DNA from: an uncultured Marinicella sp.
GTDB lineage: Bacteria; Pseudomonadota; Gammaproteobacteria; Xanthomonadales; Marinicellaceae
NCBI GenBank assembly: GCA_937942365.1
Contig: CALDFB010000276.1
Span: forward strand, 1-59,427
Length of the DNA: 59,427 nucleotides
Reading direction: 5' to 3'
Shown here in pieces: positions 20,927 to 37,988 of this stretch (within the stretch, counting starts at the first letter, position 1; each line of letters opens with the position of its first letter). The position numbers and the translations under genes are program-made. The notes under the pieces were generated by a model that made no database searches, was not told where the DNA came from, and saw only the letters and a program-made list of their open reading frames with translations.

Positions 20927-21697
20927 TTAAGAACGCAAGCCAATGCCCTTATGTAAGATATACCAAGAAATAAACCCAAGGATTAAAACAAAGGCAATGA
21001 TGATGCCATACGCAATGCCGACATTAATGTCCGAAACGCCCAAAAAGCCGTAGCGGAAAGTATTGACCATATAGAGAACTGGGTTGATCAAAGACACTTT
21101 TTGCCAAAAATCTGGCAGCAGTGAAATCGAATAAAACACCCCGCCCAAATAGGTCAAAGGTGTCAGCACAAAAGTCGGGATGATGGCGATGTCATCAAAT
21201 TTTTTCGCGAACGCTGCATTGATAAAACCACCCAAGGAAAACACGATGGAAGTCAATACCACCGTTGAGATAATAATCCAGACGTTATGGATTTTTATTT
21301 CGGTAAAGAACAAAGAAATGAGGGTCACGATAAAACCCACCATGAGCCCACGGAATAAACTGCCACTGACATAGCCAGTCAAGATGGCCCAATTGGGCAT
21401 GGGCGAAACCAATAACTCTTCCACGTGTTTGGCGAATTTAGCACCGAAAAATGAAGAAACCATATTACCGTATGAAGAGGTAATCACAGCCATCATCACC
21501 AAACCAGGCACAATGAATGACATGTAATCAAAACCACCCATCTGCCCGATTCTGGAACCAATCAAATTCCCAAAAATAACAAAATAAAGCGTCATGGTGA
21601 TCGCAGGTGGTAATAATGTCTGTGACCAAATGCGAATAATACGGGTCACTTCTTTACGCACCAGAGTCTTGATGCCAGTGAAAGTCACAGAACTCAT
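20927..21697 (-). CDS. yadH: ABC-2 transporter permease (YadH-like)
   Basis: RIWSQTLLPPAITMTLYFVIFG; PLTYLGGVFYS. Confidence 0.92.
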   Translation of the reverse strand: MSSVTFTGIKTLVRKEVTRIIRIWSQTLLPPAITMTLYFVIFGNLIGSRIGQMGGFDYMSFIVPGLVMMAVITSSYGNMVSSFFGAKFAKHVEELLVSPMPNWAILTGYVSGSLFRGLMVGFIVTLISLFFTEIKIHNVWIIISTVVLTSIVFSLGGFINAAFAKKFDDIAIIPTFVLTPLTYLGGVFYSISLLPDFWQKVSLINPVLYMVNTFRYGFLGVSDINVGIAYGIIIAFVLILGFISWYILHKGIGLRS

Positions 21698-22665
21698 GCA
21701 GCACCTCCTTGAGTGTTTTGGACTGCTTGACGTGTGTTGTTTTCAATCATTTTCACAAATAATTCCTCCAAGCGGTTGGCCTTGTTGCGCATCGATGATA
21801 CGCAGTAGCCAGCTTCATCGATTTGTTTGAATACACTGTTGAGGTTTTTCGATTTGGGCACATCCAATTCAATGCTGTTATCGTCAGTAATGCGTGCATC
21901 CAAAGCTTTTAATAAATCTTTATCAGGTGTTTTGTCTAGATCAAAAATAAACGTCTCAATATCCAAAGTTTTTAACAGGTCTTTGATGGTGGTGTTTTTA
22001 ACAATTTCACCGTGATCAATGATGGCGATGTTTTTACACAACTGTTCTGCTTCTTCTAGATAATGCGTGGTGAGGATAATCGTGGTGCCATTTTTAGCAA
22101 TTTCTTCCACAAATGACCACATCGAACGGCGGATTTCAATGTCCACACCGGCAGTTGGTTCATCCAAAATTAAAATACGCGGTTCATTCACCATCGCACG
22201 CGCAATCATCAAGCGGCGCTTCATACCACCAGACAAGCCACGTGAAATCGTGTCTTTCTTTTCCCACAGTTGTAACTGTTTGAGGTACTTTTCAGTGCGT
22301 TCCAATGCCACTTTTCTGGGTACGCCATAGTACCCCGCTTGATTGGCCACAATATCAATCGGCTTTTCAAACATGTTGAAATTAAACTCTTGAGGGACCA
22401 AACCAATCATGGCTTTAACATCAGTGCGATTTTTCACCAAGTCTTTGCCAAAAGCTTTAACCTCACCTGAGGTCATGTTAACCAATGATGAAATGATACC
22501 AATCAAAGTTGATTTACCGGCGCCATTAGGCCCCAGTAGTGCGAAAATCTCACCGGCTTCAACTTGCAAATCCACACCTTTGAGTGCCTGGGTGCCATCT
22601 TTGTAGGTTTTGACCAGGTTTTTGATGTTTATGGCCAAATGATTGTCGTCTGTTTTTACTTGCAT
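21694..22665 (-). CDS. yadG: ABC transporter ATP-binding protein (YadG-like); start corrected to MQVKTDD
   Basis: GPNGAGKS, LSGGMKRR, ILDEPT; the longer ORF-track version is antisense to the rubredoxin gene. Confidence 0.92.
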   Translation of the reverse strand: MQVKTDDNHLAINIKNLVKTYKDGTQALKGVDLQVEAGEIFALLGPNGAGKSTLIGIISSLVNMTSGEVKAFGKDLVKNRTDVKAMIGLVPQEFNFNMFEKPIDIVANQAGYYGVPRKVALERTEKYLKQLQLWEKKDTISRGLSGGMKRRLMIARAMVNEPRILILDEPTAGVDIEIRRSMWSFVEEIAKNGTTIILTTHYLEEAEQLCKNIAIIDHGEIVKNTTIKDLLKTLDIETFIFDLDKTPDKDLLKALDARITDDNSIELDVPKSKNLNSVFKQIDEAGYCVSSMRNKANRLEELFVKMIENNTRQAVQNTQGGAA

Positions 22666-22749
22666 AAATCGCTCTGTTGATGTGTGCCCGGTTGACTTTT
22701 GACAGTTTGACCGTATATTGGCGTCATCTAATAATTTTAACTGTTCCCC

Positions 22750-22920
22750 ATGGAAACTGAATTCAAAAAATATATCTGTGTTGTTTGTGGCCTCATTTAC
22801 GATGAAGCTGAAGGCTGGCCTGATGACGGTATCGAAGCCGGCACACGCTGGGAAGACGTTCCAGAAACCTGGATGTGTCCAGATTGTGGCGTCACCAAAG
22901 AAGACTTTGAGGAGCTGTGA
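22750..22920 (+). CDS. Rubredoxin (56 aa, absent from the ORF track)
   Basis: Translates to [56 protein letters not shown]; two CxxCG motifs. Confidence 0.97.
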
Positions 22921-22947
22921 TCCACAGCTCTTCACCTTCCTTAAACC

Positions 22948-23322
22948 TTAATTTTCAGCTTTAATACACTTCATCAGTTGGTAGTTTCGCCAATGGGCCA
23001 TCACCATCAACACCCCACCAACCACAAACATCGCTGACTCAATCATGATGTCAACTTTGTCTTCCAGCAAAGTACCACCGATTAAAAACCCAAAACCCAA
23101 AACAAACAACCCAACCACACCTTTATCATGATGTCGGCGCCAGCCTCTTGAAAATGACCACACCGCAATCACCGCAATGGCGCTTAACCAAATCCAGCCA
23201 TGACCAAAATGCATCCAATTAGGCACCACCGCAGTGATGCTGAGTAAAATCGGCAACATGGCACATTGTATGGCACAGAGGCCAGACATAAATATACCTA
23301 TTTTATCGGTGGTTGAATTCAT
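22948..23322 (-). CDS. MerC-domain membrane protein (start MNSTTDKIG)
   Basis: DKIGIFMSGLCAIQC; GWRRHH; AHWRN; four TM helices. Confidence 0.85.
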   Translation of the reverse strand: MNSTTDKIGIFMSGLCAIQCAMLPILLSITAVVPNWMHFGHGWIWLSAIAVIAVWSFSRGWRRHHDKGVVGLFVLGFGFLIGGTLLEDKVDIMIESAMFVVGGVLMVMAHWRNYQLMKCIKAEN

Positions 23323-23496
23323 TGAGGTGCATAGTTTGGATACAAAAAAATGGCATAATAACAGATATGGGATTTTTCTGTGTAGGTACAAGCCAATAAT
23401 CCACTTCTTTTGTCTCTTTCTCACCAGAACACCAAAGGTTTAATGGCTTTTAGCCTATAATCTAAACAGATACCGAACAAAGGGGCCACACAAAAC

Positions 23497-25716
23497 ATGC
23501 AACGCAAGAAAATCGTACTTTCCATCACACTGGCATTGGGCTTGGCCCAAAATCAAGTTCATGCACAATTTGACTTTGATCCTGTTATTCAGCTTGGGGA
23601 TATAAATGGCACCATTGGCTTTCGTCTGGACGGTGTGGCAGCAGGAGACTTCTCTGGCATCGCCGTGAGTACTGCAGGTGATGTCAACGGTGATGGTTTG
23701 GATGACCTCATTATCGGGGCTGATAGAGCCGACCCGAATGGCAGTTCTTCCGGCAGCAGCTATGTGGTGTTTGGTAACAATACAGGGTTTAACGCAACGA
23801 TCAATCTGAGCACGCTGGATGGTAGCAACGGCTTCCGACTCGATGGCGCAGCAGAAAACGACTTCTCTGGCCGAGCAGTGAGCGCAGCAGGTGATGTCAA
23901 TGGCGATGGCTTTGATGACCTGCTGATCGGCGCTTTTGGGGCTGGTTCAATTTCTGGTAGCAGCTATGTGGTGTTTGGTAACAATACAGGATTTAACGCA
24001 ACGATGAACCTGAGCACGCTGGATGGCAGCAATGGTTTTCGACTCGATGGCACAGCAGAATATGATGCTTCCGGACGCGCAGTAAGCACAGCTGGTGATG
24101 TCAATGGCGATGGCTTTGATGATCTGCTGATCGGGGCTTATGGTGCCGACCTAAATGACGGTTTATCAGGAAGCAGTTACCTGGTATTTGGGACGAATAC
24201 TGGATTTAATGCTACGCTGGACTTGAGCACACTGGATGGCAGCAACGGTTTTCGACTCGATGGCGCAGCAGAAAACGACTTCTCTGGCAGAACAGTGAGC
24301 ACGGCAGGTGATGTCAATGGCGATGGCTTTGATGACCTGCTGATCGGGGCTGTAGGGGCTACCCCGAATGGTACTTATTCCGGCAGCAGCTACGTGGTGT
24401 TTGGTAAGAGTACTCCGTTTACCGCCACACAGAACCTGAGTACGCTGGATGGCACCAACGGCTTCCGCCTCGATGGCGCGGCATCTGACCGATCCGGCGA
24501 TGCAGTGAGCGCAGCTGGCGATGTCAATGGCGATGGCTTTGATGACCTGCTGATCGGGGCCGTAGGGGCTGGTTCATTTTCTGGTAGAAGCTACGTGGTA
24601 TTTGGTAAGAGCGCCCCTTTTACCGCCACAATGAACCTGAGCACGTTGGATGGCACCAACGGCTTCCGCCTCGATGGCGCGGCATCTGACCGATCCGGCG
24701 ATGCAGTGAGCGCAGCTGGCGATGTCAATGGCGATGGTTTTGATGACCTACTGATCGGGGCTATTGGGGCTGAGCCTAATGGCTCTAGTTCCGGTAGCAG
24801 TTATGTGGTATTTGGTAAAGACACTGGGTTTAATGCCACGCAGAACTTGAACACGCTCGATGGCACCAACGGCTTCCGCCTGGATGGCGCAGCAAACGGT
24901 GATTTTTCTGGCGGTTCAGTTAGCACAGCTGGCGATATCAATGGTGATGGCTTTGATGATCTGCTGTTTGGGGCTTATGGTGCCGACCCCAATGGTTCTT
25001 TTTCCGGCAGCAGTTATGTGTTTTTTGGCCGTACTGCTGGTATTCCATTGATAAATTTCGACCAGGAACTGTTTAATTTTGGCGATACCATACTGGGCAC
25101 CAGCAGCGATGTAGCCACCGTCACATTAAGCAACCCGGGAACCGGTAACGCCTCGATCGTTACCATTAACTTGGCTGACCCTGCATTCTCAATCACCGGT
25201 GGCAGCTGCGGCACGACACCCTTCCTCATCCAATTCGGTGAATCTTGCACACTGGATCTACAATTCACACCACAAGCAGTAGGTAGCGCTTTGATAAAAA
25301 CAGTGTTTGAAGGTAACTCCTTCACCACCCCCGACTCAATCACTCTGGCAGGCAATGGCGTGCTACCGCCAATGGTCTCTTTACAACCTGATCCATTGGT
25401 CTTTATGGACACCCCAGTTGGAAACAGCAACATCGAAACACTTACTGTCGAAAACATCGGCCAAAATAGCACCTTGGAACCCGGAATGGTTTCCATCCTA
25501 GGCACCGATGCGGCTGATTTCAGCATAGCCATGAATAACTGCATGGGCGCACAACTAGAACTCAATCAATCCTGTGACATCGAGGTGAGTTTTACCCCAA
25601 GTGCAGCTGGCACCCGAGAGGCCGTGTTACAACTTCAGTCCAATGCACCAAGCAGCCCCGACTTTATCGAACTGACAGGTAGCAGCGATGTGATTTTTAA
25701 ATCAGGGTTTGAGTGA
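23497..25716 (+). CDS. Secreted 7x FG-GAP propeller + two ASH/Ig-like (choice-of-anchor D-like) domains + DVIFKSGFE
   Basis: Signal peptide; seven AGD[VI]NGDGxDDL repeats; two Ig-like units (NxG...F...C...CxxxxxFTP). Confidence 0.92.
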   Translation: MQRKKIVLSITLALGLAQNQVHAQFDFDPVIQLGDINGTIGFRLDGVAAGDFSGIAVSTAGDVNGDGLDDLIIGADRADPNGSSSGSSYVVFGNNTGFNATINLSTLDGSNGFRLDGAAENDFSGRAVSAAGDVNGDGFDDLLIGAFGAGSISGSSYVVFGNNTGFNATMNLSTLDGSNGFRLDGTAEYDASGRAVSTAGDVNGDGFDDLLIGAYGADLNDGLSGSSYLVFGTNTGFNATLDLSTLDGSNGFRLDGAAENDFSGRTVSTAGDVNGDGFDDLLIGAVGATPNGTYSGSSYVVFGKSTPFTATQNLSTLDGTNGFRLDGAASDRSGDAVSAAGDVNGDGFDDLLIGAVGAGSFSGRSYVVFGKSAPFTATMNLSTLDGTNGFRLDGAASDRSGDAVSAAGDVNGDGFDDLLIGAIGAEPNGSSSGSSYVVFGKDTGFNATQNLNTLDGTNGFRLDGAANGDFSGGSVSTAGDINGDGFDDLLFGAYGADPNGSFSGSSYVFFGRTAGIPLINFDQELFNFGDTILGTSSDVATVTLSNPGTGNASIVTINLADPAFSITGGSCGTTPFLIQFGESCTLDLQFTPQAVGSALIKTVFEGNSFTTPDSITLAGNGVLPPMVSLQPDPLVFMDTPVGNSNIETLTVENIGQNSTLEPGMVSILGTDAADFSIAMNNCMGAQLELNQSCDIEVSFTPSAAGTREAVLQLQSNAPSSPDFIELTGSSDVIFKSGFE

Positions 25717-25787
25717 CGTGGTGAATACTCATATACGAAGCTTCTTAATAAAATACATTTAGAAATTAAATTAAAGGGTCAATAAAC

Positions 25788-28025
25788 ATGCAACGCAAGA
25801 AAATCGCACTTTCCATCACACTGGCATTGGGCTTGGCCCAAAACCCCGTTCATGCGCAATTTGACTCTGTGATTCAACTGAGTGATTTAGATGGCACCAC
25901 TGGTTTCCGCCTGGATGGTGTTGCGACATTCGACCAGTCAGGCAGCGCAGTGAGTTCTGCTGGTGATATCAATGGCGATGGCTTTGATGACCTCATTATC
26001 GGTGCTAATAATGCTGACCCGAACGGCGTTAGTTCCGGCAGCAGCTATGTGGTGTTTGGTAAGGGTACTCCGTTTACCGCCTCACTGAATCTGAGCATGC
26101 TGGATGGAACCAACGGATTCCGGCTTGATGGCGAAGCAGCGAATGACTTCTCAGGTTTCGCAGTGAGCGCAGCTGGTGATATCAATGGCGATGGTTTTGA
26201 TGACCTTATTATCAGTACACCTTTCACTGACCCGAACGGCCTTCGCTCCGGCAGCAGCTACGTGGTGTTTGGCACCAATCTCCCGTTTAATCCCACAATT
26301 AACTTGGGCACGCTGAATGGCAGCAATGGTTTTCGACTCGATGGCGCAACAGAATATGATGATTCCGGACGCGCAGTGAGCACAGCTGGTGATATCAATG
26401 GCGATGGCTTTGATGACCTCATAATTGGGGCTGATGGTGCCAACCCGAACGGCGTTAGTTCCGGCAGCAGCTACGTGGTGTTTGGTAAAAGTACTCCGTT
26501 TACCGCTACGCAGAACTTAAGCACGCTGGATGGAACCAACGGCTTTCGCCTTGATGGCGAAGCGGCGAACGACTTTTCGGGCAGAGATGTGAGTAATGCT
26601 GGTGATGTCAATGGTGATGGCATCGACGATCTCATTATCGGGGCTTTTGGTGCCAGCCCGAACGTCAGTGGTTCTGGCAGCAGCTACGTGGTATTTGGTA
26701 AGAGTACTCCGTTTTCTGCCACACAAAGTTTGAGTACACTGAATGGCAACAACGGCTTCCGACTTGATGGCGAAGCGACCTATGATCTTTCCGGCCGCAG
26801 CGTGAGCGCTGCTGGTGATCTCAATGGTGATGGCTTTGATGACCTCATTATTGGGGCTGATGGTGCTGACCCGAACGGCCTTCGTTCCGGCAGCAGCTAT
26901 GTGGTGTTTGGCAAGAGTACTCCATTTACCACCACGCAGAACTTAAGCATGCTGGATGGCAGCAACGGCTTTCGTCTTGATGGTGAAGCGACGGACGACT
27001 ATTCGGGCAGAAATGTGAGTGCAGCTGGCGATGTCAATGGCGATGGCTTTGATGATCTCATTATCGGGGCTGATGGTGCTGACCCAAATGGCAGTTTATC
27101 TGGAAGCAGTTACGTGGTATTTGGGACGAATACTGGATTAAATGCTACACTGAATCTGGGCACGCTGGATGGAACCAACGGCTTCCGACTTGATGGCGAA
27201 GCGGCCCTTGACTCTTCCGGCCGCGAAGTGAGCACAGCAGGTGATGTTAATGGCGATGGCATTGATGACCTCATTATCGGTGCACCTTTTGCTGACCCGA
27301 ACGTCAGTAATTCCGGCAGCAGCTACGTGGTGTTTGGTCGACTCACTGGATTTCCATTGGTCAATTTCGATGTGAACCTGATTGATTTTGGTGATACAAC
27401 ACTAGGGACCAGCAGCAATACAAGCACCGTAACCTTAAGTAATCCCGGTACCGGTCTGGTCACCATTGATGGCATTAACCTGGCAGATCCTGCATTCGCC
27501 ATCACCGGTGGCGACTGTGGCACGCCACCATTCTTCATCGGCGTCAACGAAACCTGCACACTTGACCTGCAGTTCACACCGCAAGTAATTGGTACCACGG
27601 TAACCAAGGCCATTGTTGAGAGTAATTCAGCCTCAAGCCCCGACTCATTCTTCCTGATTGGCAACGGCGTGCTGCCACCAATGGTCTCTTTACAACCCGA
27701 TCCGCTGGTCTTTATGGACACCCCAGTTGGAAACAGCAGCACCGAAACACTCACGGTCGAAAACATCGGCCCAAGTAGCACCTTGGAACCCGGAATGGTT
27801 TCTATCCTAGGCGCTGATGCGGCTGATTTCAGCATCACCACAAACAACTGCCTCGGCGCACAACTAGAACTCAACCAGTCTTGTGACATTGAAATCAGTT
27901 TTACACCCAGCGTAGCCGGCACCCGCGCAGCGATGATACAGCTGGAGTCCAATGCACCCAGCAGCCCCGACTTTGTTGAACTGCTGGGCAGCAGTGATGT
28001 GATTTTTAAGTCTGGGTTTGAGTGA
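25788..28025 (+). CDS. Secreted 7x FG-GAP propeller + two ASH/Ig-like domains + DVIFKSGFE (paralog of 23497)
   Basis: Same architecture; near-identical signal peptide and last Ig domain. Confidence 0.92.
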   Translation: MQRKKIALSITLALGLAQNPVHAQFDSVIQLSDLDGTTGFRLDGVATFDQSGSAVSSAGDINGDGFDDLIIGANNADPNGVSSGSSYVVFGKGTPFTASLNLSMLDGTNGFRLDGEAANDFSGFAVSAAGDINGDGFDDLIISTPFTDPNGLRSGSSYVVFGTNLPFNPTINLGTLNGSNGFRLDGATEYDDSGRAVSTAGDINGDGFDDLIIGADGANPNGVSSGSSYVVFGKSTPFTATQNLSTLDGTNGFRLDGEAANDFSGRDVSNAGDVNGDGIDDLIIGAFGASPNVSGSGSSYVVFGKSTPFSATQSLSTLNGNNGFRLDGEATYDLSGRSVSAAGDLNGDGFDDLIIGADGADPNGLRSGSSYVVFGKSTPFTTTQNLSMLDGSNGFRLDGEATDDYSGRNVSAAGDVNGDGFDDLIIGADGADPNGSLSGSSYVVFGTNTGLNATLNLGTLDGTNGFRLDGEAALDSSGREVSTAGDVNGDGIDDLIIGAPFADPNVSNSGSSYVVFGRLTGFPLVNFDVNLIDFGDTTLGTSSNTSTVTLSNPGTGLVTIDGINLADPAFAITGGDCGTPPFFIGVNETCTLDLQFTPQVIGTTVTKAIVESNSASSPDSFFLIGNGVLPPMVSLQPDPLVFMDTPVGNSSTETLTVENIGPSSTLEPGMVSILGADAADFSITTNNCLGAQLELNQSCDIEISFTPSVAGTRAAMIQLESNAPSSPDFVELLGSSDVIFKSGFE

Positions 28026-28187
28026 GATATACATCTGACTTTAATTCACTGGTGTGGTGAAAACTGAACTTCAAGGTTTAACCAAAAACACACGTACGCT
28101 GTGTAAAATACCACTTCTTTCTCTCCAGTGAATTGAGCCCTGTAAGCGTCATTAAAGTGGAGTGGTTTAAAACTCAAGGGTATAAAA

Positions 28188-29780
28188 ATGCAACGAAAAA
28201 AGATCACTTTAGCGGTTTCAATGGCCTTGTGCCTGACACACATGCACAGTGCCAATGCTCAATTTGAACCCACCATTGAACTGGCCGATCTTAATGGCTT
28301 AAATGGCATCAGATTCAATGGCGTCGCTGAGTTCGATAACACCGGTGTTTCAGTCTCGTCAGCTGGTGACATCAACGGTGATGGCATAGATGATCTGATC
28401 ATCGGCGCCAATGATGCTGATCCAAATGGGACTGATCGTGCTGGCAGCAGTTATGTGGTGTTTGGTACATCCATTGGTTTACCCAGTCCCTTTGAGTTAT
28501 CAACTTTAAATGGCAGCAATGGTTTCACCATTAACGGGGTTGCTGATGTAGACTTGTCAGGTTTTTCAGTCGATGGGGCTGGAGACATCAATGGCGATGG
28601 CTTTGATGACTTAATCATTGGTGCGCTGTATGCCGATGTGAATGGTGCCAAGGATGCTGGCAGCGCCTATGTGGTGTTTGGTTCAAATACTGGTTTACCC
28701 AACCCGTTGAATTTATCCGACCTTGATGGCAACAACGGCTTTGCGCTTCATGGGATTGGCATGGGTGACCGAACCGGAAGAGCTGTCAGTGCTGCAGGTG
28801 ATATCAACGGTGATGGCATCGATGACTTGGCTATTTCTGCAGATCGTGCCAGCCCAGGTGGCAGCAACAGTGCTGGCAGCGCCTATGTGGTATTTGGCTC
28901 GAACAGTGACTTACCCAACCCTTTTAATCTATCCAGTCTCAACGGTAACAATGGCTTCACCATCAATGGCTCTTCATCTTTTGACCAGGTAGGCACTTCC
29001 GTCAGCACAGCAGGGGACATCAATGGCGATGGCATAGATGATCTGATCATCGGCGCTGATAGCGCAGGCACAACAGGTAGCACATATGTGGTGTTTGGCT
29101 CCGATAATGGTATACCCAATCCTTTCAGTTTATCTGCCATCAACGGTACCAACGGGTTTTCCATCAATGGCGAGGCCAGTGGCGATTTGTTAGGTTTTTC
29201 AGTCAGTGCTGCGGGCGATGTTAACCACGATGGCATAGATGATTTAATTGTAGGTGCCCGTGGTGCTGATCCGAGTGGTAACAGTTTTGCTGGCAGCAGC
29301 TACGTCATTTATGGGTCTGATTCTGGTATTCCTCACCCTTTTGATTTATCAACCCTTAATGGTACCAATGGATTTGCTCTCAACGGTATAGCAGAAAATG
29401 ATTACTCTGGCATTTCAGTCAGTGCAACTGGCGACATCAATGGTGATGGTATGGATGATCTGATCATCGGAGCCAGCGGTGCAGACCCTAATGGCTCAAA
29501 TAGTGCCGGCAGTGCTTATGTGGTATTTGGTTCTGACGCGGGCATTTCACACCCTTTTGATTTATCGGCCCTCAATGGAGTTAACGGTTTTACTGTCAAT
29601 GGTGTTTCGAATTCAGACACCACCGGTTATTCAGTCAGCGAAGCGGGTGATTTCAACGGTGATGGTTTGAACGACATATTGATAGGTGCTCGCAGGGCAG
29701 ATCCTGATGGTAACAGCAGTGCTGGCAGCAGCTATGTGGTGTTTGGTAATGATGTGATTTTTAAAAGTGGGTTTGAGTAA
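28188..29780 (+). CDS. Secreted 7x FG-GAP propeller + DVIFKSGFE
   Basis: Seven FG-GAP repeats; no Ig stalk. Confidence 0.92.
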   Translation: MQRKKITLAVSMALCLTHMHSANAQFEPTIELADLNGLNGIRFNGVAEFDNTGVSVSSAGDINGDGIDDLIIGANDADPNGTDRAGSSYVVFGTSIGLPSPFELSTLNGSNGFTINGVADVDLSGFSVDGAGDINGDGFDDLIIGALYADVNGAKDAGSAYVVFGSNTGLPNPLNLSDLDGNNGFALHGIGMGDRTGRAVSAAGDINGDGIDDLAISADRASPGGSNSAGSAYVVFGSNSDLPNPFNLSSLNGNNGFTINGSSSFDQVGTSVSTAGDINGDGIDDLIIGADSAGTTGSTYVVFGSDNGIPNPFSLSAINGTNGFSINGEASGDLLGFSVSAAGDVNHDGIDDLIVGARGADPSGNSFAGSSYVIYGSDSGIPHPFDLSTLNGTNGFALNGIAENDYSGISVSATGDINGDGMDDLIIGASGADPNGSNSAGSAYVVFGSDAGISHPFDLSALNGVNGFTVNGVSNSDTTGYSVSEAGDFNGDGLNDILIGARRADPDGNSSAGSSYVVFGNDVIFKSGFE

Positions 29781-29921
29781 TTAGGTTTTACTTAACTAAT
29801 ATCTCAGCTATTTTGGTTTTTTTAAATCCATATTTTTAACATTAACGAATAACAAACAATTTATTTGTTATCATTTCATCGCTGTGTTTTTAGCTTCATT
29901 AAATCAATAAGGAAATCAATC

Positions 29922-31499
29922 ATGCGATTCAAAAAAAATAAAATAGTTATGGGTGTTACTCTTGCACTAAGCTTTTCCCAAAACAATGCTTTTGCTCAAT
30001 TTGATCCTGTAATCCAACTCAATGAGTTAAATGGTACAAACGGTTTTCGTATAGATGGAGAATCTTTGGCAGATCGCTCTGGTTTTTCAGTCAGTACTGC
30101 AGGAGATTTTAATGGTGATGGAGTCGATGACCTCATTATTGGAGCTTATCAAGCTGACCCTGGTGGTACTGACTCCGGTAGCAGCTATGTTATTTTTGGC
30201 ACAAATGTCGGGGTGGGTTCTTCATTTAGTCTAAGTTCTTTAGATGGCTCTAACGGTTTTCGCCTCGATGGTGCGACAAAGGGTGAACGATCTGGTCTAG
30301 CGGTGAGCGATGTTGGCGATGTTAATGGCGATGGTATTGGTGATATAATTATTGGAGCACCTCGTGCCAATCCAAATATGAGTTATTCAGGCAGTAGTTA
30401 CGTGGTGTTTGGTTCTGACGTTTTATTCGATGCCACATTGGGCCTCAGTTCACTTGATGGCTCCAATGGCTTTCGTCTTGACGGCGAAACTTTAGGTGAT
30501 TTATCAGGCAGCGCAGTAAGTGCAGCTGGAGATATCAATGGTGATGGAATTGATGATATAGTCATCGGTGCATACAACGCTGATCTCAATGGCGCTTTTT
30601 CAGGAAGCAGCTATGTGGTTTTTGGCAGCAGTGGATTCAATGCCACACTGAATCTCAGTACATTAGATGGCTCTAATGGCTTTCGCCTAGATGGCATGGC
30701 ATTTGAGTCTTCTGGCGGTGCTGTAAGCAGTGCTGGTGATGTTAATGGCGATGGCATTGACGACCTTATCATCGGTGCTCAGTATGCGGACAATAATGGG
30801 AGCTCATCTGGTAGTACTTACCTGGTATTTGGTACCAAAACAGAATTTAGTGCTACACTGGATCTCAGTACTTTGGATGGTGTCAACGGCTTTAGGATAG
30901 ATGGTACCTCGGCCAGAGACTTACTTGGCAGGTCAATAAGCCGTGCTGGTGACGTCAATGATGATGGCATTGATGATATTATCATTGGGGCGCCTCGTGC
31001 CGATTATAGTGGTGTTGATTCTGGCAGCACTTATGTGGTGTTTGGTTCAAATGCTGGATTTGATGCCACGTTTAATGTCGAATCCCTTAATGGCATCAAC
31101 GGTTTTCGGATTGATGGTACTACTGCTGATGAACGATCCGGTACTGCAGTAAACAAAGCGGGGGATGTCAACGGTGATGGCATTGATGATATTATCATTG
31201 GGGCACCTCTTGCCGACGTTAATGACGACGATTCTGGCAGTAGCTACTTAGTATTTGGTCGCAGCACCGCTTTTGAAGCCAGTTTAAATTTAAGTAGTCT
31301 GAATGGATCAAATGGCTTCCGACTCGATGATTCAGGGGTAGGTAATTTTTCTGGGTTTGCAGTAAGTTCTGCTGGTGATTTTAATGGTGATGGCATGAGT
31401 GACGTCATTATTGGAGCCTACAATGCTAACAACAGTGTTGGCAGTAGCTATGTGGTTTATGGAAAAACTGACGTTATATTTATGGACAGCTTTGAATAA
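29922..31499 (+). CDS. Secreted 7x FG-GAP propeller + DVIFMDSFE (start corrected to MRFKKNK)
   Basis: aagga RBS before ATG 29922; seven FG-GAP repeats. Confidence 0.92.
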   Translation: MRFKKNKIVMGVTLALSFSQNNAFAQFDPVIQLNELNGTNGFRIDGESLADRSGFSVSTAGDFNGDGVDDLIIGAYQADPGGTDSGSSYVIFGTNVGVGSSFSLSSLDGSNGFRLDGATKGERSGLAVSDVGDVNGDGIGDIIIGAPRANPNMSYSGSSYVVFGSDVLFDATLGLSSLDGSNGFRLDGETLGDLSGSAVSAAGDINGDGIDDIVIGAYNADLNGAFSGSSYVVFGSSGFNATLNLSTLDGSNGFRLDGMAFESSGGAVSSAGDVNGDGIDDLIIGAQYADNNGSSSGSTYLVFGTKTEFSATLDLSTLDGVNGFRIDGTSARDLLGRSISRAGDVNDDGIDDIIIGAPRADYSGVDSGSTYVVFGSNAGFDATFNVESLNGINGFRIDGTTADERSGTAVNKAGDVNGDGIDDIIIGAPLADVNDDDSGSSYLVFGRSTAFEASLNLSSLNGSNGFRLDDSGVGNFSGFAVSSAGDFNGDGMSDVIIGAYNANNSVGSSYVVYGKTDVIFMDSFE

Positions 31500-31538
31500 A
31501 GTAATATGTGATCAAATATTGAATAAAAAACCCGAATT

Positions 31539-32576
31539 ATGACCCAAAATAAACTTGAATTTAATGGCTCCAGACAGTTCTGCAGCTGGCTGATTGAACA
31601 CAATATCAGTTTGAGCTTTTCCACCTATCAAGCGGGTAAGTTGTTTTTTATTGGTATGCAGGATGAGGCTAAGATGTCGGTTTTTGAGCGGACTTTTGCG
31701 CGCTGTATGGGTATTGGACTCGACCCTAAAACCATGAGTTTATGGGTGGCCAACCTTTACCAACTTTGGCGTTTTGAAAATGCTTTAAAGCCCGGACAAT
31801 CACACCAAGGTTTTGATCGAGTTTACGTACCACAAGTGGGCTACACCACGGGCGATGTCGATGCGCATGATGTGGCCATTGATGATGAAGGAGTTCTTTT
31901 TGTGAACACCTTATTCAGTTGTTTGGCCAGGCCAAGTGACCAATACAGCTTTGAATCCATCTGGCAACCGCCGCATATTTCTAAACTGGCCGCTGAAGAC
32001 CGCTGTCACCTCAATGGCCTAGCGACCAAAGATGGTCAGGCCGCTTATGTCACCTGTGTCAGCCAAACCGATGTGAATGAAGGCTGGCGCGAACACCGCC
32101 AAACCGGTGGTGTGGTGATTGATGTACAAAACAATGAAGTGGTGGCTGATGGTTTATCCATGCCGCACTCACCCAGATGGTATAACGGAAAACTATGGGT
32201 GCTGAATTCAGGTGAGGGTGAGTTTGGCTACATTGACCTGACCAGTGGTCGATTTGAGCCAGTGGCTTTTTGTCCAGGTTATCTGCGTGGCATGAGCTTT
32301 CATGGTGACTACGCGGTGGTAGGTCTTTCTAAGCCCAGAGGCAATAAAACCTTCGAAGGTCTGAAACTGCATGAAAAACTTGAAGCTAAAAAGGTACAGC
32401 CTCGCTGTGGCTTACAAGTGATTAATCTAAACACAGGTGATGTGGTTCATGAATTAAGAATCGAAGGAGTGGTCGAGGAGTTATACGATGTGTGTATTCT
32501 GCCCGGAGTGAAAAGACCCATGGCCATCGGTTTTATGAACGAGGAGATCAGGCGGGTATTGTCTTTGCCGTTTTAA
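31539..32576 (+). CDS. TIGR03032 / DUF4915-like protein
   Basis: STYQAGKL; TGDVDAHD; VNTLFSCLA; EDRCHLNGLA; GLSMPHSPRW; FCPGYLRG; VGLSKPR; no signal peptide. Confidence 0.88.
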   Translation: MTQNKLEFNGSRQFCSWLIEHNISLSFSTYQAGKLFFIGMQDEAKMSVFERTFARCMGIGLDPKTMSLWVANLYQLWRFENALKPGQSHQGFDRVYVPQVGYTTGDVDAHDVAIDDEGVLFVNTLFSCLARPSDQYSFESIWQPPHISKLAAEDRCHLNGLATKDGQAAYVTCVSQTDVNEGWREHRQTGGVVIDVQNNEVVADGLSMPHSPRWYNGKLWVLNSGEGEFGYIDLTSGRFEPVAFCPGYLRGMSFHGDYAVVGLSKPRGNKTFEGLKLHEKLEAKKVQPRCGLQVINLNTGDVVHELRIEGVVEELYDVCILPGVKRPMAIGFMNEEIRRVLSLPF

Positions 32577-32853
32577 AAAGATCTTTTTAAGAAGGACTAA
32601 CCAATGTCCAAGTACAATCAAAAGATCATTCAATCATTGTAATCACAACTCTATAAAAAACTGGAGTTGCCTAATGCAAAGGCTTTGCATAGAAACTTGA
32701 TGTCAGTTTAATGGTTTTTTGAGACTAAATACCTGCTCTTAATTATACTGAAGCTCCGACAAAGTAAAACCAAACTTTTGGCTTAATCAATTTTTTTATG
32801 GCAAAATAAAAATAACAGTAAAAAACCTCGACAATGTAAGGGAGTATTTAAAA

Positions 32854-34455
32854 ATGAACCGCAAGAAAATCGTTGTTTCTATTACCTTGGTATTGAGTCT
32901 AGCGCAACAACCTGCATTGGCGCAATTTCCATCACCTTTAGAGCTGAGCACTTTAAATGGTAACAATGGCTTCACCATCAACGGTGTGAATTTAAATGAC
33001 CGCTCTGGTACCTCAGTCAGCTCAGCAGGTGATATTAATGGCGATGGCATCGATGACCTTATTATTGGTGCTCCGTTGGCTGATCCTAATGGAGCGGGTG
33101 ATGCTGGCAGCAGCTATGTGGTCTTTGGTTCTGATAATCCACTGCCCAACCCTTTTAATTTAAGCACCATCAATGGCAGCAATGGCTTCTCTATCAACGG
33201 CGAGGCTGCTGGTGACTCCTCTGGCTTTTCTGTCAACTCAGCTGGTGATATTAATGGCGATGGCATCGATGACCTTATTATTGGTGCGCCATATGCAGAC
33301 CCAAATAATAATTTGTCTGGCAGTAGCTATGTAGTGTTTGGGCGTGATTCAGGTTTTACATCCGCACTAAATCTTTCTGGTTTAAACGGATCCAATGGTT
33401 TTGCGATTAATGGTGTGGCAGCAGCAGACCTCTCAGGTACTTCAGTGAGTTCAGCTGGTGATTTTAACGGTGATGGCATAGATGATTTGATCATTGGTGC
33501 AATATACGGTGAACCTAAAGGTGATGATTATGCTGGTGGCAGTTACGTAGTCTTCGGACGTGATACGGGTTTTACATCCACATTAGAGCTGTCTAGTTTA
33601 AATGGTTCCAACGGTTTCTCCATTAGCGGTGTGGCTACAGATGACCAGTCTGGCTTCTCTGTTAGTTCAGCGGGAGATGTTAATGGTGATGGTATAGATG
33701 ATGTGATCATTGGTGCGCCATATGCAGACCCTAATAGTAACGATGAAGCTGGTAGTAGCTATGTGGTATTTGGTTCTGACAACCCACTGCCCAACCCTTT
33801 TAATTTAAGCACCATCAATGGCAGCAATGGTTTCTCTATCAACGGTGTGTTTGCAGGTGACAACTCTGGCTTTTCTGTCAGTGCAGCTGGTGATGTTAAT
33901 GGCGATGGCATCGATGATCTGATTATTGGTGCTAATCGCGCAGACCCCAATGGCAACCAAAATGCTGGCAGCAGTTATGTGGTATTTGGTTCTGATAGCT
34001 CATTACCGAACCCTTTTAATTTAAGTACCATCAATGGCACCAATGGCTTCACCATCAACGGTGTGATAAGTGGAGAAAACTCTGGATTTTCTGTCAGCGC
34101 AGCGGGCGATATCAATGGCGATGGCATAGATGATTTGATTATTGGCGCCCCAAATGCAAATTTTTCTGTTAATTTAGTCGGTGCGAGTGATGTACTGTTA
34201 GGTTCAAAAAACCCCATACCCCATCCATTTAATATCAGCACAATTAATGGCCTAAATGGCTTCAGTATGTTTGGTGTGGCAAATGGCGACAGGACTGGTG
34301 CAGCAGTCAGTGCTGCAGGTGATGTCAACGGTGATGGAGTTGATGACTTGATTATCGGTGCTCCTTTTGCTGACCCTAATGGCGTAGGTGTTGCTGGCAG
34401 CAGCTATGTGGTATTCGGCGAAAGAGACCTGATTTTTAAGGATGGGTTTGAATAG
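32854..34455 (+). CDS. Secreted 7x FG-GAP propeller + DLIFKDGFE
   Basis: Signal peptide (ALA|QF); seven repeats, several with literal IIGAP. Confidence 0.92.
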   Translation: MNRKKIVVSITLVLSLAQQPALAQFPSPLELSTLNGNNGFTINGVNLNDRSGTSVSSAGDINGDGIDDLIIGAPLADPNGAGDAGSSYVVFGSDNPLPNPFNLSTINGSNGFSINGEAAGDSSGFSVNSAGDINGDGIDDLIIGAPYADPNNNLSGSSYVVFGRDSGFTSALNLSGLNGSNGFAINGVAAADLSGTSVSSAGDFNGDGIDDLIIGAIYGEPKGDDYAGGSYVVFGRDTGFTSTLELSSLNGSNGFSISGVATDDQSGFSVSSAGDVNGDGIDDVIIGAPYADPNSNDEAGSSYVVFGSDNPLPNPFNLSTINGSNGFSINGVFAGDNSGFSVSAAGDVNGDGIDDLIIGANRADPNGNQNAGSSYVVFGSDSSLPNPFNLSTINGTNGFTINGVISGENSGFSVSAAGDINGDGIDDLIIGAPNANFSVNLVGASDVLLGSKNPIPHPFNISTINGLNGFSMFGVANGDRTGAAVSAAGDVNGDGVDDLIIGAPFADPNGVGVAGSSYVVFGERDLIFKDGFE

Positions 34456-34742
34456 GCCATTGCAAACATGCTATTTGTCTCTGGTGTTTTTAACCCATTA
34501 AAGATGTTAATGGTGACTTGATTGTTGGTACCAGAGGTATGGGCCCCAATCTCAGAGCCAACGCGGGCAACCATTATGTTGTATTTTGTGGTGATGCAAT
34601 TTTTAAAAACAAATTTCAATGACACCAGCTCAGTTGCATCATTTTTAGTTAACACACAAATTAAGAAACTTGTAAGTCTTTACTCAATAAACATTTAAGC
34701 AGTGTAAAATGTTGCTATCATCTACCATCAAAGCATATTGAT

Positions 34743-35453
34743 ATGAGCGCTAACCACTATCCAGCTGAAATAGATCAATTCGACAGCCAAGCGGCTTTTT
34801 GGTGGGATTTGCAAGGCCCTTTTAAAACCCTGCACCAAATCAATCCGGTTCGCCTTAAATACATCACCGATCACGTCACTATCGATGGTCAAAAAGTACT
34901 GGATGTGGGCTGTGGCGGTGGCATTTTGTCTGAAGCGCTGGCCGCTAGTGGTGCAGAGGTCACTGGGCTGGATTTATCTTCCGCTTCCCTGCAAACCGCT
35001 AAGCTACATTTACATGAATCTGGTCAACAAGTGAATTATCAGCAACAAAGCATCGAAGACTTTGCTGCAGAAAATCCAGAATCTCAAGATGTGGTGTGTT
35101 GTTTAGAAATGCTTGAGCATGTGCCAGACCCTGACAGCATCATCGATGCTTGTTTGAAAGCATTAAAACCGGGAGGTTGGTTATTTTTATCCACCTTAAA
35201 CCGAACCCCCAAAGCGATGCTGCTGGGTATATTTGCTGCTGAACATATATTGAAGATTGTTCCCAAAGGGACGCATCATTTTGAGCAGTTCATCAAACCC
35301 TCTGAGTTGGTTAAAATATTGAACAAGAAAGCCGTGGACATCGAAAACATCTCTGGCATGCGCTACAACCCAATCACCGAAACAGCCAGTTTGGATGCTC
35401 AGGATTTAGACATCAACTATTTTGTGGCCATCAAAAAGCATGAAAAAAGCTGA
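34743..35453 (+). CDS. ubiG: Ubiquinone biosynthesis O-methyltransferase
   Basis: WWDLQGPFKTLHQINPVR; LDVGCGGG; EMLEHVPDP; KGTH. Confidence 0.96.
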   Translation: MSANHYPAEIDQFDSQAAFWWDLQGPFKTLHQINPVRLKYITDHVTIDGQKVLDVGCGGGILSEALAASGAEVTGLDLSSASLQTAKLHLHESGQQVNYQQQSIEDFAAENPESQDVVCCLEMLEHVPDPDSIIDACLKALKPGGWLFLSTLNRTPKAMLLGIFAAEHILKIVPKGTHHFEQFIKPSELVKILNKKAVDIENISGMRYNPITETASLDAQDLDINYFVAIKKHEKS

Positions 35454-36123
35454 AACTAAAATTTCTGCCTTGTTGTTCGATCTGGATGGTACGCTGATTG
35501 ATACGGCTGTTGATATGATTCATGCCTTGGCTCAATTGGCTGACAATCATCATATTAAACACAACTTAAATGTCGCTGAATTCCGCCAATACATCTCTAA
35601 AGGAGCGGTGGCTTTGGTCAAGTCAGTGTTCGACAACCCTTCACCTGAAAAGCTGGAATCACTGCGCAAAGAATACCTGGAAATTTACCAACAACAACTC
35701 AACACCCACAGCCAATTATTCGAGGGTGTGGCTGAACTCATTCAACATTTGGATCAAAATCACATCCCTTGGGGCATTGTCACCAACAAACCGTCGTGGT
35801 TGGCTAAACCCATTGTCCAAGCCACCACAGAACTTAACAACTCACAAATTCTGCTGTGTGCCGATGAAATGGGCGTGGCCAAACCTGACCCCAAACCTTT
35901 ATTGGTTGCCGCTGAAAAAATGGGCATCAATCCTGCAAGCACATTGTATTTAGGTGACGCCCAATCTGATATCGATGGCGCTCATAATGCGGGCATGCAA
36001 TCGGCGGTGGCGATGTGGGGATATTTGGCGCCAGAGGATAAGGTGGATGAGTGGGGGGCTGGGTTTAGGTTTGAATCATCTTCCGCAATAGTTACAAAAC
36101 TGCTATCAAGTAAATTTTTATGA
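35440..36123 (+). CDS. gph: HAD-IA hydrolase (phosphoglycolate phosphatase / MupP-like), downstream of ubiG
   Basis: FDLDGTLID; VTNKP; KPDPKP; GDAQSD. Confidence 0.85.
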   Translation: MKKAETKISALLFDLDGTLIDTAVDMIHALAQLADNHHIKHNLNVAEFRQYISKGAVALVKSVFDNPSPEKLESLRKEYLEIYQQQLNTHSQLFEGVAELIQHLDQNHIPWGIVTNKPSWLAKPIVQATTELNNSQILLCADEMGVAKPDPKPLLVAAEKMGINPASTLYLGDAQSDIDGAHNAGMQSAVAMWGYLAPEDKVDEWGAGFRFESSSAIVTKLLSSKFL

Positions 36124-36324
36124 TTTACCTTTCATTAACAGTTGCAATGGTTTCACAGTTAGGAGTCCTGTATTTTTTATATACAAAATCTTCAGAAACT
36201 AAAGAAAGTATTGTATTGATCATTTTTGCTTCTGTATGTAAATAAAAAGATCAAAGAGCAACTTTAATTTATGGTTTTACAATTTTCATCAAGAACCTGA
36301 CTACAAACTTTATTAACTTCTTGT

Positions 36325-37032
36325 TTATTTTTTTGGTACATATACATATTTTCTTATTTCTTCAACAACTTCCGGATATAAGAAAAAAGAAGAATTCTCT
36401 GCTAAAAAATAATTAGGCAAAGTTACTGTCTTTCTTCTTCGCTTTGTAAAGTATATATTACTCCAAATTAAAGCTGTTCGTGCTCGGTGCTGCTTATTAT
36501 CTAAAACTTTTTCAATAAACCCATTCAATACCAATAAATTTTCTTTGGTTTTATTGTCAGTTTGTTTGAGTAGTTCTTCGAATTTAGGAAGTAAAGGGAC
36601 ATTTTCCGTTCTTAATGAATAATTATAAAGAATTGAATTACAATACCGCCTTAGTTCCCAAACCACTCGATCTAGATACACCACTTCATGTTCATGTAAA
36701 TACCACGAGACTTCCATATACCTATATTTAGCATTAGTCTCTTCTAAACGTTTTAGGAATTTATCCGATTGATCTGAGATCTTTATATCAATGTGACCTG
36801 ACAAAATTTCTAGTGTTCTTCTTACCTCGTGTCCTAAGGGTGGTTTTGGCTTTGGAGTTCGGCTTAATAAAATAATACACTTCGCATATTTTTCTAAAGC
36901 ATGTAATGCAGACCAGTGAAACTGAGGGATTAAAGCAGAACGATATGCCATACGCGCATGAATGTAATCCTTATCTGCGGTGTCTCTAAGCCCTCTAAGA
37001 GCATAATCATTTATTTTATCGTTAATATTCAT
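36325..37032 (-). CDS. HEPN-domain protein
   Basis: ADKDYIHAR...ALEKYAKC...LGH pattern typical of HEPN; AT-rich. Confidence 0.7.
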   Translation of the reverse strand: MNINDKINDYALRGLRDTADKDYIHARMAYRSALIPQFHWSALHALEKYAKCIILLSRTPKPKPPLGHEVRRTLEILSGHIDIKISDQSDKFLKRLEETNAKYRYMEVSWYLHEHEVVYLDRVVWELRRYCNSILYNYSLRTENVPLLPKFEELLKQTDNKTKENLLVLNGFIEKVLDNKQHRARTALIWSNIYFTKRRRKTVTLPNYFLAENSSFFLYPEVVEEIRKYVYVPKK

Positions 37033-37068
37033 ATTCGCTTTGAGGTTTCTTTCTTGAATGCTTGATAT

Positions 37069-37513
37069 GGTATACCAAACTTGGCTTGTTAATCGGGTAA
37101 ATTATTAACCGACGAAAGCTCTAGCCTAGATTCCTGCCACTCGCCTAGGCTCGGCTGAAATGACGGTGGTTGATTAGCTTTCTAGATTGGAAAATCTAAC
37201 TGCTTCACCCTGCATTAAGCTTAAGTAACTAAAGAACAAAAGAACGTCATTGCGAAGGAGGTACGACTGCGGCAATCTCCATAAATCTGGTGTAATGCTT
37301 TTTGTATAAATTACCTTTGCTTTACGAGATTGCCGCGGTCGTTTCACTCCCTCGCAATGACACCGATTTTTACTCTTTCCCAACGCTCCAGCGTGGGAAT
37401 GCATAGGGATGTTCATGTTAAGTTTAACTCATCAATCAAATTAATCGTTAACCTGAAAAACCTTCTGCCTGGATTCCTACTAACTCACTTAGGCTCGGCT
37501 GGAATGACGGTGG
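37069..37513. repeat. Mosaic cluster of REP/RPE-like repeats (C+B, A, D, B)
   Basis: 37069-37166 is the reverse homolog of 12547-12640; A 37246-37361; D ~37374-37406; B 37455-37513. Confidence 0.8.
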
Positions 37514-37549
37514 TTTTTTTGAACTTTTAACCTTTGGAATGTTTACTGA

Positions 37550-37745
37550 TGTGCAGTTAAGTGTTTTTGAAACCAGTGGCTCATCCTTGAGCGTTTTAAT
37601 CCTTTTGATTCCTTTATATGTTTAGCAGGCAGTTAAGTTTTAAATCTCTTGTTAACTTATATCCTTGAACTCGTCCTGGAGTGTTATCTTCCTTTTAATT
37701 CCTTTTTTACCTATTTAAGAGAGGGAGTTTTTTAACTGCCTTATT
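37550..37745 (-). ncRNA. Candidate CsrA/RsmA-sequestering sRNA (boundaries approximate)
   Basis: Seven AGGA motifs in 120 nt on the minus strand, two in hairpin loops; three-motif module repeated at a 90-nt period. Confidence 0.6.
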
Positions 37746-37916
37746 TATATACTCGTAAAACAAGTCCAAACCTTGTCAAAATAATTGAATTATTTTTAAT
37801 TTATTTGGTGGCAGTTAAGGGTTTTTCATGAACAGCGCTATATATTGGGTGTTTTGAGGGTGGTTTTATTTGACAAATTTTCCATGGTATTAAAGTAGAC
37901 ACTATTTTATTTTCAA

Positions 37917-37988
37917 TGGATAGTTGGCTTCAGCCAACCTGTATAACTAATGATTCTAAAACCTGTTGACTAAAGTCAACAACCCAAA
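37917..37988. repeat. Family-E REP doublet
   Basis: gttggcttcagccaac ... gttgactaaagtcaac; homolog of 12694-12769. Confidence 0.7.

Follow-up and report, generated by a model that had tools for sequence, protein, structure and literature searches.

Organization of the Array

The stretch of DNA analyzed here (the window) is a contig of 59,427 nucleotides (nt) from an uncultured Marinicella sp., contig C276 of a genome of 3.39 Mb in 342 contigs that is 91.4% complete (designated G000). At positions 23497-34455 it carries six co-oriented genes on the forward strand: five genes for FG-GAP β-propeller proteins, named P1 to P5 in this work, and one gene of the DUF4915/TIGR03032 family. The original prediction for this locus had described five co-oriented seven-blade genes, and these are present, each with seven FG-GAP stretches and together with 35 of 35 calcium loops; the sixth co-oriented gene, which sits between P4 and P5 and is separated from P4 by 39 nt, had been overlooked. 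The genes and their parts, all on the forward strand, are the following (immunoglobulin is abbreviated as Ig).

23497-25716, +: P1, 739 amino acids, long form, with signal peptide, seven FG-GAP blades, two choice-of-anchor D Ig-like domains and an end-tag
about 25045-25683, +: Ig-like domains of P1
25687-25713, +: end-tag of P1, DVIFKSGFE
25788-28025, +: P2, 745 amino acids, long form with the layout of P1, to which it is 75.6% identical
about 27354-27992, +: Ig-like part of P2
27996-28022, +: end-tag of P2, DVIFKSGFE
28188-29780, +: P3, 530 amino acids, short form, with signal peptide and seven blades; the propeller protein that was modelled
29751-29777, +: end-tag of P3, DVIFKSGFE
29922-31499, +: P4, 525 amino acids from the ATG at 29922, short form with seven blades
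31470-31496, +: end-tag of P4, DVIFMDSFE
31539-32576, +: DUF4915/TIGR03032 gene, 345 amino acids, no signal peptide, predicted six-bladed β-propeller
32854-34455, +: P5, 533 amino acids, short form, with signal peptide and seven blades
34426-34452, +: end-tag of P5, DLIFKDGFE

Propeller Proteins

The Pfam FG-GAP model (PF01839) matches each of P1 to P5 in seven stretches (E 4e-47 to 2e-60), and the calcium loop D-x-[ND]-x-[DN]-G-x-x-D is found in all blades, seven times per protein, at a spacing of 67-72 residues. The blades are 71-72 residues long, with D-x-N-x-D-G-x-x-D as the calcium loop of each. A period of 213/216 nt is also seen in the DNA of P1, P2 and P5 by Tandem Repeats Finder. Binding of calcium by these proteins is predicted from the loop motif. 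For P3, an AlphaFold (AF2) model based on an alignment of 16 rows has a mean predicted local distance difference test score (pLDDT) of 92.9 and a predicted template modelling score (pTM) of 0.91, and contains 28 strands arranged in seven four-stranded blades plus a short N-terminal strand. A phmmer search against the PDB returned integrin alpha chains in 56 of 56 matches, and all top matches listed by Foldseek for the P3 model are propellers of integrin alpha chains (E values between 2e-24 and about 2e-20, template modelling score normalized to the target up to 0.76). Judged from the model, the head of P1-P5 is integrin-alpha-like in fold, but these proteins are not integrins.

The N-termini of P1-P5 are basic, then hydrophobic, and end in A-Q-F, in agreement with the shared signal peptide ending AQF that had been predicted. 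They have the features of Sec-type signal peptides, for which cleavage is expected after the Ala of A-Q-F. In the case of P4 the open reading frame (ORF) list places the start at a TTG at 29865, and it is the ATG at 29922 that yields the MRFKK signal peptide common to the array. P1 and P2 carry, in addition, the choice-of-anchor D domain (NF012200; 98.2 and 93.3 bits, respectively, against a cut-off of 45), with two stretches in each protein and none in P3-P5, and these Ig-like domains are also matched by the HYDIN/ASH Ig models. The stalk of two Ig domains on two of the proteins is thus real. The likening of the whole to an integrin alpha with propeller and leg holds for the head, which matches in fold in the PDB and Foldseek searches, but not for the leg, which is of the choice-of-anchor D/ASH type and was matched by no integrin leg model. 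No transmembrane segment, lipobox or known anchor was found in P1-P5, in which the chain ends at the tag, nor was any RTX match found among the Pfam models.

The propeller module itself is very abundant: at E<=0.001 there are 61,067 cluster representatives, and 15,222 still match at E<=1e-30, the best matches being giant multi-propeller proteins.

Variation Among the Paralogs

The propellers of P1-P5 are mutually 53-76% identical and, as had been proposed, make up a paralogous family in long and short forms. Placed on the strands of the model, the repeat runs in the order outer strand, 4-1 loop, strand 1, calcium loop, strand 2, 2-3 loop, strand 3 and 3-4 loop. The mean column entropy among P1-P5 differs between these regions as follows.

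4-1 loop: 1.20 bits
2-3 loop: 1.24 bits
3-4 loop: 0.96 bits, variable in its first half
calcium loop: 0.37 bits
strands: 0.29-0.70 bits

Variation had been noted as concentrated in two loops per blade, and entropy is indeed highest in the 4-1 and 2-3 loops, but the first half of the 3-4 loop also varies. Residue differences reach 41-59% in the 4-1 and 2-3 loops versus 2-29% in strands and calcium loops, in comparisons of P1 with P2, of P3 with P5 and of P2 with its counterpart in the genome G017 (G004, G005, G012, G017, G018 and G022 are genomes of the same genus, and G024 belongs to a neighbouring genus). Successive loops of a four-stranded meander blade point to alternate faces, which puts the 4-1 and 2-3 loops together on one face and the calcium loops on the other. 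The original prediction had proposed mapping the variable residues onto an AlphaFold model: by blade topology the two most variable loops fall on one face, and the variable half of the 3-4 loop falls on the other side. A single variable face of the propeller is therefore supported as a pattern, with the face placed by blade topology. In integrins, the 4-1 and 2-3 loops form the ligand face.

The comparison of nonsynonymous with synonymous substitution rates (dN/dS), also proposed in the original prediction, was run as region averages for gene pairs. Values are 0.25-0.50 for the 4-1 and 2-3 loops and lower, 0.01-0.21, for the framework, but none exceeds 1 and positive selection is not supported. 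The loop values fit relaxed constraint as well as diversification. A recent gene conversion or cassette mechanism was considered and rejected, as no identical DNA run of at least 40 nt is shared between any two of P1-P5.

The C-Terminal GFE Tail

In all five propeller proteins D-[VL]-I-F-x-x-[GS]-F-E stands immediately before the stop codon, the IFxxGFE-type end that had been noticed before, with Ser in place of Gly in P4. The nine-residue tail is predicted to be disordered, its last six residues in the model of P3 (525-530) having a pLDDT below 50. This ending is not restricted to propellers. A scan of the stop-to-stop ORFs of at least 80 amino acids in G000 with the motif [LIVM]-[LIVF]-F-x-x-[GS]-F-[ED] found it at most six residues from the end in 75 of 5220 ORFs, 45 of which carry it exactly at the end, and elsewhere in the protein in 11. 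The tagged ORFs belong to mixed families, 72 of the 75 have an Asp directly before the motif, and 55 of the 75 passed a crude signal-peptide test. No Pfam or NCBIfam model covers the tag in P1-P5, and a literature search on the words describing it returned unrelated papers only.

The tag follows directly after the choice-of-anchor D domain in P1 and P2, and directly after a choice-of-anchor Q domain in two proteins encoded on contig C69 of the same genome (one of which was scanned). A comparable architecture with another ending occurs in Wenzhouxiangella. In a contig of a metagenome-assembled genome of that genus (locus L093, positions 279-12642), four co-oriented genes for proteins with a propeller and choice-of-anchor D surround a DUF4915 gene, an array of the same kind as in G000 but with another tail: in these four proteins the C-terminus is made up of PVPxL, then a hydrophobic stretch and basic residues. 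The IPTL-CTERM model matched one of the four tails, at 19.0 bits and thus below its cut-off of 20.5, and the genome contains an exosortase-family match (34.6 bits). The exosortase family (PF09721) had no match in G000, where at 91.4% completeness absence is not proven, nor in a GFE-tailed Rhodanobacteraceae genome. The GFE tail therefore stands where an IPTL-CTERM-like sorting signal stands in Wenzhouxiangella, but without the defining membrane-spanning part of such a signal.

The motif also appears elsewhere in the window. A BNR/sortilin-Vps10-type protein (9734-11929, -) ends in DLIFQNGFELD, which is the tag plus two extra residues; it is one of two propeller proteins of this type in the window, the other being encoded at 45159-48059 (+). 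At 49427-52165, a rhomboid-family gene (212 amino acids; 32.5 bits with the rhombosortase model against a cut-off of 84) adjoins the gene of a 646-amino-acid β-helix (NosD-like) protein, in which a D-L-V-F-x-x-G-F-E motif is located near the N-terminus (about residue 32) and not at the end.

The DUF4915 Partner Gene

The assignment of the sixth gene is clear: its product matches TIGR03032 with 485.9 bits (cut-off 251.5) over model positions 1-334 of 335, and PF16261 with 474.8 bits (cut-off 35). Its model (pLDDT 85.7) is a six-bladed propeller with invariant His, Cys, Asp and Arg residues. Deriving a function from this fold was tried and given up, since Foldseek and VIA-align return a smooth list of six-bladed propellers (Z 23.6 for YWTD, 20.9 for gluconolactonase, 19.8 for arylsulfate sulfotransferase and 19.5 for PAL) to which no chemistry can be assigned. 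A full-text literature search found no paper naming DUF4915 or TIGR03032.

The gene keeps the company of propeller genes well beyond this locus. Its short form directly adjoins tagged FG-GAP genes in five genomes of the same genus (G018, G022 with two loci, G017, G005 and G004). Within the genus, FG-GAP match pieces number 5-36 in each of the eight genomes that carry the short form and 0-4 in each of the 16 that do not. To look across phyla, one genome per species was scanned, which gave 589 relatives, and neighbourhoods were taken from the best 80 loci (54-88% identity), which span cyanobacteria, planctomycetes, alpha-, beta- and gammaproteobacteria, verrucomicrobia and others. FG-GAP ORFs were called there with a hidden Markov model made from the 35 array blades, at least three blades being required. 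An FG-GAP ORF, mostly with 7, 14 or 35 blades, is present in 30 of the 80 loci and is the immediate neighbour of the DUF4915 gene in 27. Counted by gene, the immediate neighbours number 147 and include 27 FG-GAP ORFs, 25 of them on the same strand, versus 7 among the 636 other ORFs of those loci, an odds ratio of 20 (Fisher p 5e-15), to be read with the proviso that the loci are not independent and ORF calling was crude. Among 63 other same-strand immediate neighbours that were scanned there are eight TPR-GT41 proteins, four APS kinases, three RTX proteins and five parts of type I secretion systems.

The linked propellers differ in how they appear to be exported. Those of cyanobacteria and betaproteobacteria are without signal peptide, start their first blade at residue 2-7 and have RTX or bluetail ends, and those of planctomycetes have long N-terminal leaders. 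As the propeller is constant while export signals differ (RTX/bluetail, leaders, IPTL-like, GFE), the propeller is the likely client of DUF4915. A prediction of the complex of P3 (residues 25-530) with the DUF4915 protein, run without controls, scored 0.00 against a mark of 0.32 and is evidence neither for nor against. The glycosyltransferase family GT41 (PF13844) had no match in G000 at its 91.4% completeness, and NxS/T sequons are not clearly enriched over shuffled sequences in P1-P5 (z 3.1, 1.0, 0.3, 1.0 and 1.2, respectively).

A second DUF4915 copy of G000, in a unit on contig C69 (locus L101; 125-5788, - for the unit as a whole), is a protein of 756 amino acids in which the domain is fused to TPR repeats and to a weak GT9-like stretch (E 4e-6). 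The fusion gene stands directly upstream of the genes for two GFE-tagged secreted proteins, near duplicates of 419 and 423 amino acids; the choice-of-anchor Q model was matched on the 419-amino-acid protein, the one scanned of the two. The unit looks tandemly duplicated, as an ORF of 125 amino acids between the tagged proteins repeats the 3' end of the fusion gene. A third tagged protein (298 amino acids) is encoded divergently at 5949-6845 of the same contig. In other fused DUF4915 forms, no other Pfam match was found in the N-terminal 400 residues of the form of genome G030 (locus L017) or in the N-terminal part of the form at locus L047.

The Array Across Relatives

Whether the array is fixed had been posed as a question in the original prediction, and it is not: copy number ranges from three in G017 to at least 11 in G005, and a search with P3 as query (E<=1e-20) gave no match in 7 of the 23 further genomes of the genus. 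The locus of G017, the closest relative, is the same by synteny, with an ABC permease 99.6%, a DUF4915 protein 96.5% and a UbiG protein 89.7% identical, and holds three FG-GAP genes versus five in G000, namely a short one (61% identity to P3), a long one (74% to P2) and a counterpart of P3 (89-91%), with nothing after DUF4915. The P3 counterpart (L013, 8256-9848) has an in-frame TGA after codon 165 and is either a pseudogene or the product of an assembly error. In G018, the upstream flank is kept together with two or three FG-GAP ORFs and DUF4915. The largest set is that of G005, with 36 match pieces to P3 at the same threshold, including at least 11 ORFs with at least three calcium motifs in about 60 kb. 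No DUF4915 gene is present in that region (C1:3793676-3851343), where a Cys is added to the tail in six of the at least 11 FG-GAP ORFs, five of them ending in GF[DEG]-C-[INM] and one in AFD-C-N.

In a tree of 30 propellers, from which ORFs with fewer than five calcium motifs or with a propeller span outside 400-560 residues were left out, the G005 copies form species-specific clades (support 100/100 and 99/96). P3 and P5 group with genes of four other genomes (88/87), and P1, P2 and P4 are not placed. The deep branches lack resolution, 13 of the 27 inner branches of the tree being open, and any order of duplications beyond the supported clades was rejected. The array is thus the product of birth-and-death turnover of an accessory family, and neither a fixed array nor a conversion cassette system.

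The DNA of the window is present in marine metagenome DNA runs only, and no RNA run is listed for it. Metagenome contigs of the locus are short, with identical pieces in a second sample of the same study. In a contig of 2461 nt from another study, belonging to a 90-95% relative, the flank on the side of the MerC-like gene runs into FG-GAP DNA with a skip of 3270 nt, which, because of the repeats, is a weak hint of a different first array gene in that relative.

Genomic Setting

On one side, the array is flanked by ABC-2 transporter and MerC-like genes and on the other side by ubiG-like and HAD phosphatase-like genes. A scan for promoters and terminators found fewer sites in the array than in shuffles (10 versus 19.4 and 9 versus 11.0, respectively) and so gives no evidence of an operon. 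Three further FG-GAP copies of G000 are located on contigs C279, C114 and C16. The GC content at third codon positions (GC3) of P1 (0.50), P2 (0.52), the ABC permease (0.51) and the MerC-like gene (0.49) lies above the 99th percentile of the genome (0.46) in all four cases. As the flanking housekeeping genes exceed this percentile too, no conclusion on horizontal transfer of P1 and P2 was drawn. Along 20927-36123, synonymous divergence (dS) from the G017 locus is uneven (0.13 for the ABC permease, 0.57 for DUF4915 and 1.22 for UbiG), and together with the high GC3 this may reflect a recombination mosaic. Farther on, a stretch of low GC content (36000-42000; 0.35-0.36 versus about 0.42 around it), which may be an island, contains a gene for an 852-amino-acid LRR and DUF1963 protein (38388-40946, -) and an ORF of 235 amino acids without family match.

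Marinicella is described as marine, aerobic, non-motile and peptide-degrading in the main text of the paper on these organisms (PMC7691419), which also assigns a type II secretion system to the core genome common to Marinicella and Wenzhouxiangella, both described as proteolytic, non-motile marine bacteria. That main text makes no mention of FG-GAP, integrin, propeller, sorting or C-terminal.

Interpretation and Alternatives

The array is the Marinicella member of a very common and long-annotated protein family, and what is new is the context, that is, the tail and the partner, and not the propellers. On balance, we lean toward reading P1-P5 as exported seven-bladed integrin-type FG-GAP propellers that form a diversified, calcium-stabilized binding set provided with a GFE address tail and a DUF4915 partner. 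The proteins would leave the cytoplasm through their predicted Sec-type signal peptides, and the variable face made by the 4-1 and 2-3 loops would serve, as in integrins, as the binding face for targets outside the cell. In the long forms P1 and P2 the two Ig-like domains may act as spacers that carry the propeller further outward. The D-[LIV]-I-F-x-[ND]-G-F-E tail would be the address or docking tag of this lineage, replacing the exosortase-type IPTL-CTERM tail of the sister family. The DUF4915 protein, predicted to be cytoplasmic, could be a modifying enzyme, an adaptor or a holdase that acts on the propellers ahead of their export; a role before export is suggested by the gene staying beside propeller genes across phyla whatever their export signal.

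Several points weigh against this reading. Binding, surface location and calcium binding are predictions. With dN/dS below 1 in every region, the loop variation may be relaxed constraint; between P3 and its 89%-identical G017 counterpart, the copy that carries a stop codon, differences are even (11-16% in loops and outer strand region); and variability is also seen on the side of the calcium loops, in the first half of the 3-4 loop. For the tail, the IPTL-CTERM match is below cut-off and concerns one of four Wenzhouxiangella tails, and the exosortase comparison comprises three genomes. As to the partner, in 53 of the 80 loci DUF4915 is not immediately adjoined by an FG-GAP gene, in G005 the DUF4915 gene is remote from most of the FG-GAP genes, and G024 has eight FG-GAP match pieces without short-form DUF4915. 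A version in which DUF4915 has an N-glycosylation role in G000 was dropped because of the weak sequon counts and because no GT41 was found.

A bolder proposal, which we regard as tentative and rather doubtful when taken as one whole, is that array, DUF4915 and GFE tail belong to a single undescribed pathway. DUF4915 would prepare propeller clients in many phyla, modifying or holding them whatever route they then take (type I, IPTL-CTERM/exosortase or GFE), and in Marinicella and its relatives a reader of the tail would place the variable repertoire on the cell surface.

The alternatives differ mainly on whether the proteins stay on the cell and on whether the loop variation is meaningful. The one that survives best, although unlikely, is that P1-P5 are released exoproteins or matrix components, type II secretion cargo binding polymers, particles or the cell's own matrix, as the Bap1/RbmC propeller proteins of Vibrio cholerae are reported to do; the tail would then be a secretion or docking signal and not an anchor. 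Such a role would suit proteins with no transmembrane segment, lipobox or known anchor whose chain ends at the tag, a tag shared by dozens of other ORFs of mixed families, in a lineage for which type II secretion is reported as part of the core genome that Marinicella and Wenzhouxiangella share (PMC7691419). However, it fits poorly with the Wenzhouxiangella architecture, which ends in tails resembling a cell-surface sorting signal, and with the choice-of-anchor domains, which, as their family name says, are defined by their place before anchoring signals.

Less probable again is an ordinary duplicated family without repertoire function, in which P1-P5 would be redundant structural calcium-binding proteins and the loop differences neutral drift. 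The dN/dS values below 1 everywhere, the commonness of the module (15,222 cluster representatives at E<=1e-30), the stop codon in one G017 copy and the missing identical runs of at least 40 nt, which argue against any active conversion or cassette mechanism, are all as this explanation would have them. It accounts less well for differences that are 2 to 10 times denser in two loops of one face than in the framework, with calcium loops and strands strongly constrained, or for a copy number that goes from no match to at least 11 within a genus, as is typical of accessory, environment-facing genes.

That DUF4915 sits in the array by chance or by genomic hitch-hiking, without functional tie to the propellers, is improbable. 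The generic six-bladed fold with no assignable chemistry, the 53 loci without an adjacent FG-GAP gene and the many FG-GAP genes located far from any DUF4915 gene would agree with it, but the share of FG-GAP ORFs among immediate neighbours (27/147 versus 7/636 of the others, 25 of the 27 on the same strand), the persistence of the adjacency across several phyla and export signals, and the fact that both DUF4915 copies of G000 adjoin tagged secreted proteins speak for a tie. Finally, P1-P5 are hardly likely to have a role in immunity or inhibition of the kind known from XAC2610, by which Xanthomonas is shielded from its own type IV secretion effector: the model NF047539 scores 31-63 bits on them, above its 35-bit cut-off in four of the five, but the match covers about positions 3-49 of 89, that is, one calcium-loop blade segment, mostly with no stretch passing alone, there is neither a lipobox nor an effector gene nearby, and the fold of the protein as a whole matches that of integrin propellers.

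Few secreted repeat modules of bacteria are as widespread as the integrin-type propellers, and the 2011 survey still asks what their role is (Chouhan et al., 2011; PMC3192720). The locus studied here is compact and tractable, as it combines small single propellers with a partner gene and a short end-tag in a genus of which cultured species exist. If DUF4915 proves necessary, the TIGR03032/DUF4915 family gains a function, and if the GFE tail proves to be an address label, a sorting signal without membrane-spanning part is added to those described.

Comparison With Known Systems

P1-P5 resemble the head of metazoan integrin alpha in fold and blade motif. In contrast to it, they carry the calcium motif in seven of seven blades instead of three to four, and they are without the thigh and calf domains, the transmembrane helix, the cytoplasmic tail and the beta subunit of integrins. 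They are closer to the bacterial integrin-type propellers surveyed before, in which 229 sequences had at least seven signatures, some of them 14, and whose function was asked about (Chouhan et al., 2011; PMC3192720). Like P1-P5, the propellers of that survey have, in the part considered here, seven blades, a calcium motif per blade, regular loop lengths and no transmembrane helix, and its multiples of 7 and 14 agree with the 7, 14 and 35 blades of the DUF4915-linked proteins. Set against the same parts of the survey, P1-P5 are distinguished by being small single propellers in a tandem array, by the Sec signal peptide, the nine-residue GFE tail and choice-of-anchor D, and by the DUF4915 partner.

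The GFE tail is like the signals of exosortase, sortase and rhombosortase systems (IPTL-CTERM TIGR04174, PEP-CTERM, LPXTG, GlyGly-CTERM) in being a short end motif on many unrelated exported proteins, and like these tripartite signals it follows choice-of-anchor domains; it also takes the place of the IPTL-CTERM-like tails of Wenzhouxiangella. It differs from them in that there is no hydrophobic helix or basic cluster, the protein ending 0-6 residues after the motif; no sorting-domain model was matched on the GFE-tailed P1-P5, and no exosortase match was found in G000.

HMW1C/HMW1-type pairs consist of an adhesin and a cytoplasmic GT41 glycosyltransferase by which it is modified ahead of its export. 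The pair of DUF4915 and FG-GAP genes is similar in that a cytoplasmic protein is encoded beside a secreted adhesin-like protein, its possible target. It is unlike HMW1C in that DUF4915 is a six-bladed propeller and not a glycosyltransferase, with no two-partner secretion genes nearby. The type I secreted RTX/FG-GAP giants, in turn, differ from P1-P5, which have signal peptides and no RTX match; it is the DUF4915-linked relatives in cyanobacteria and betaproteobacteria that fit this giant type.

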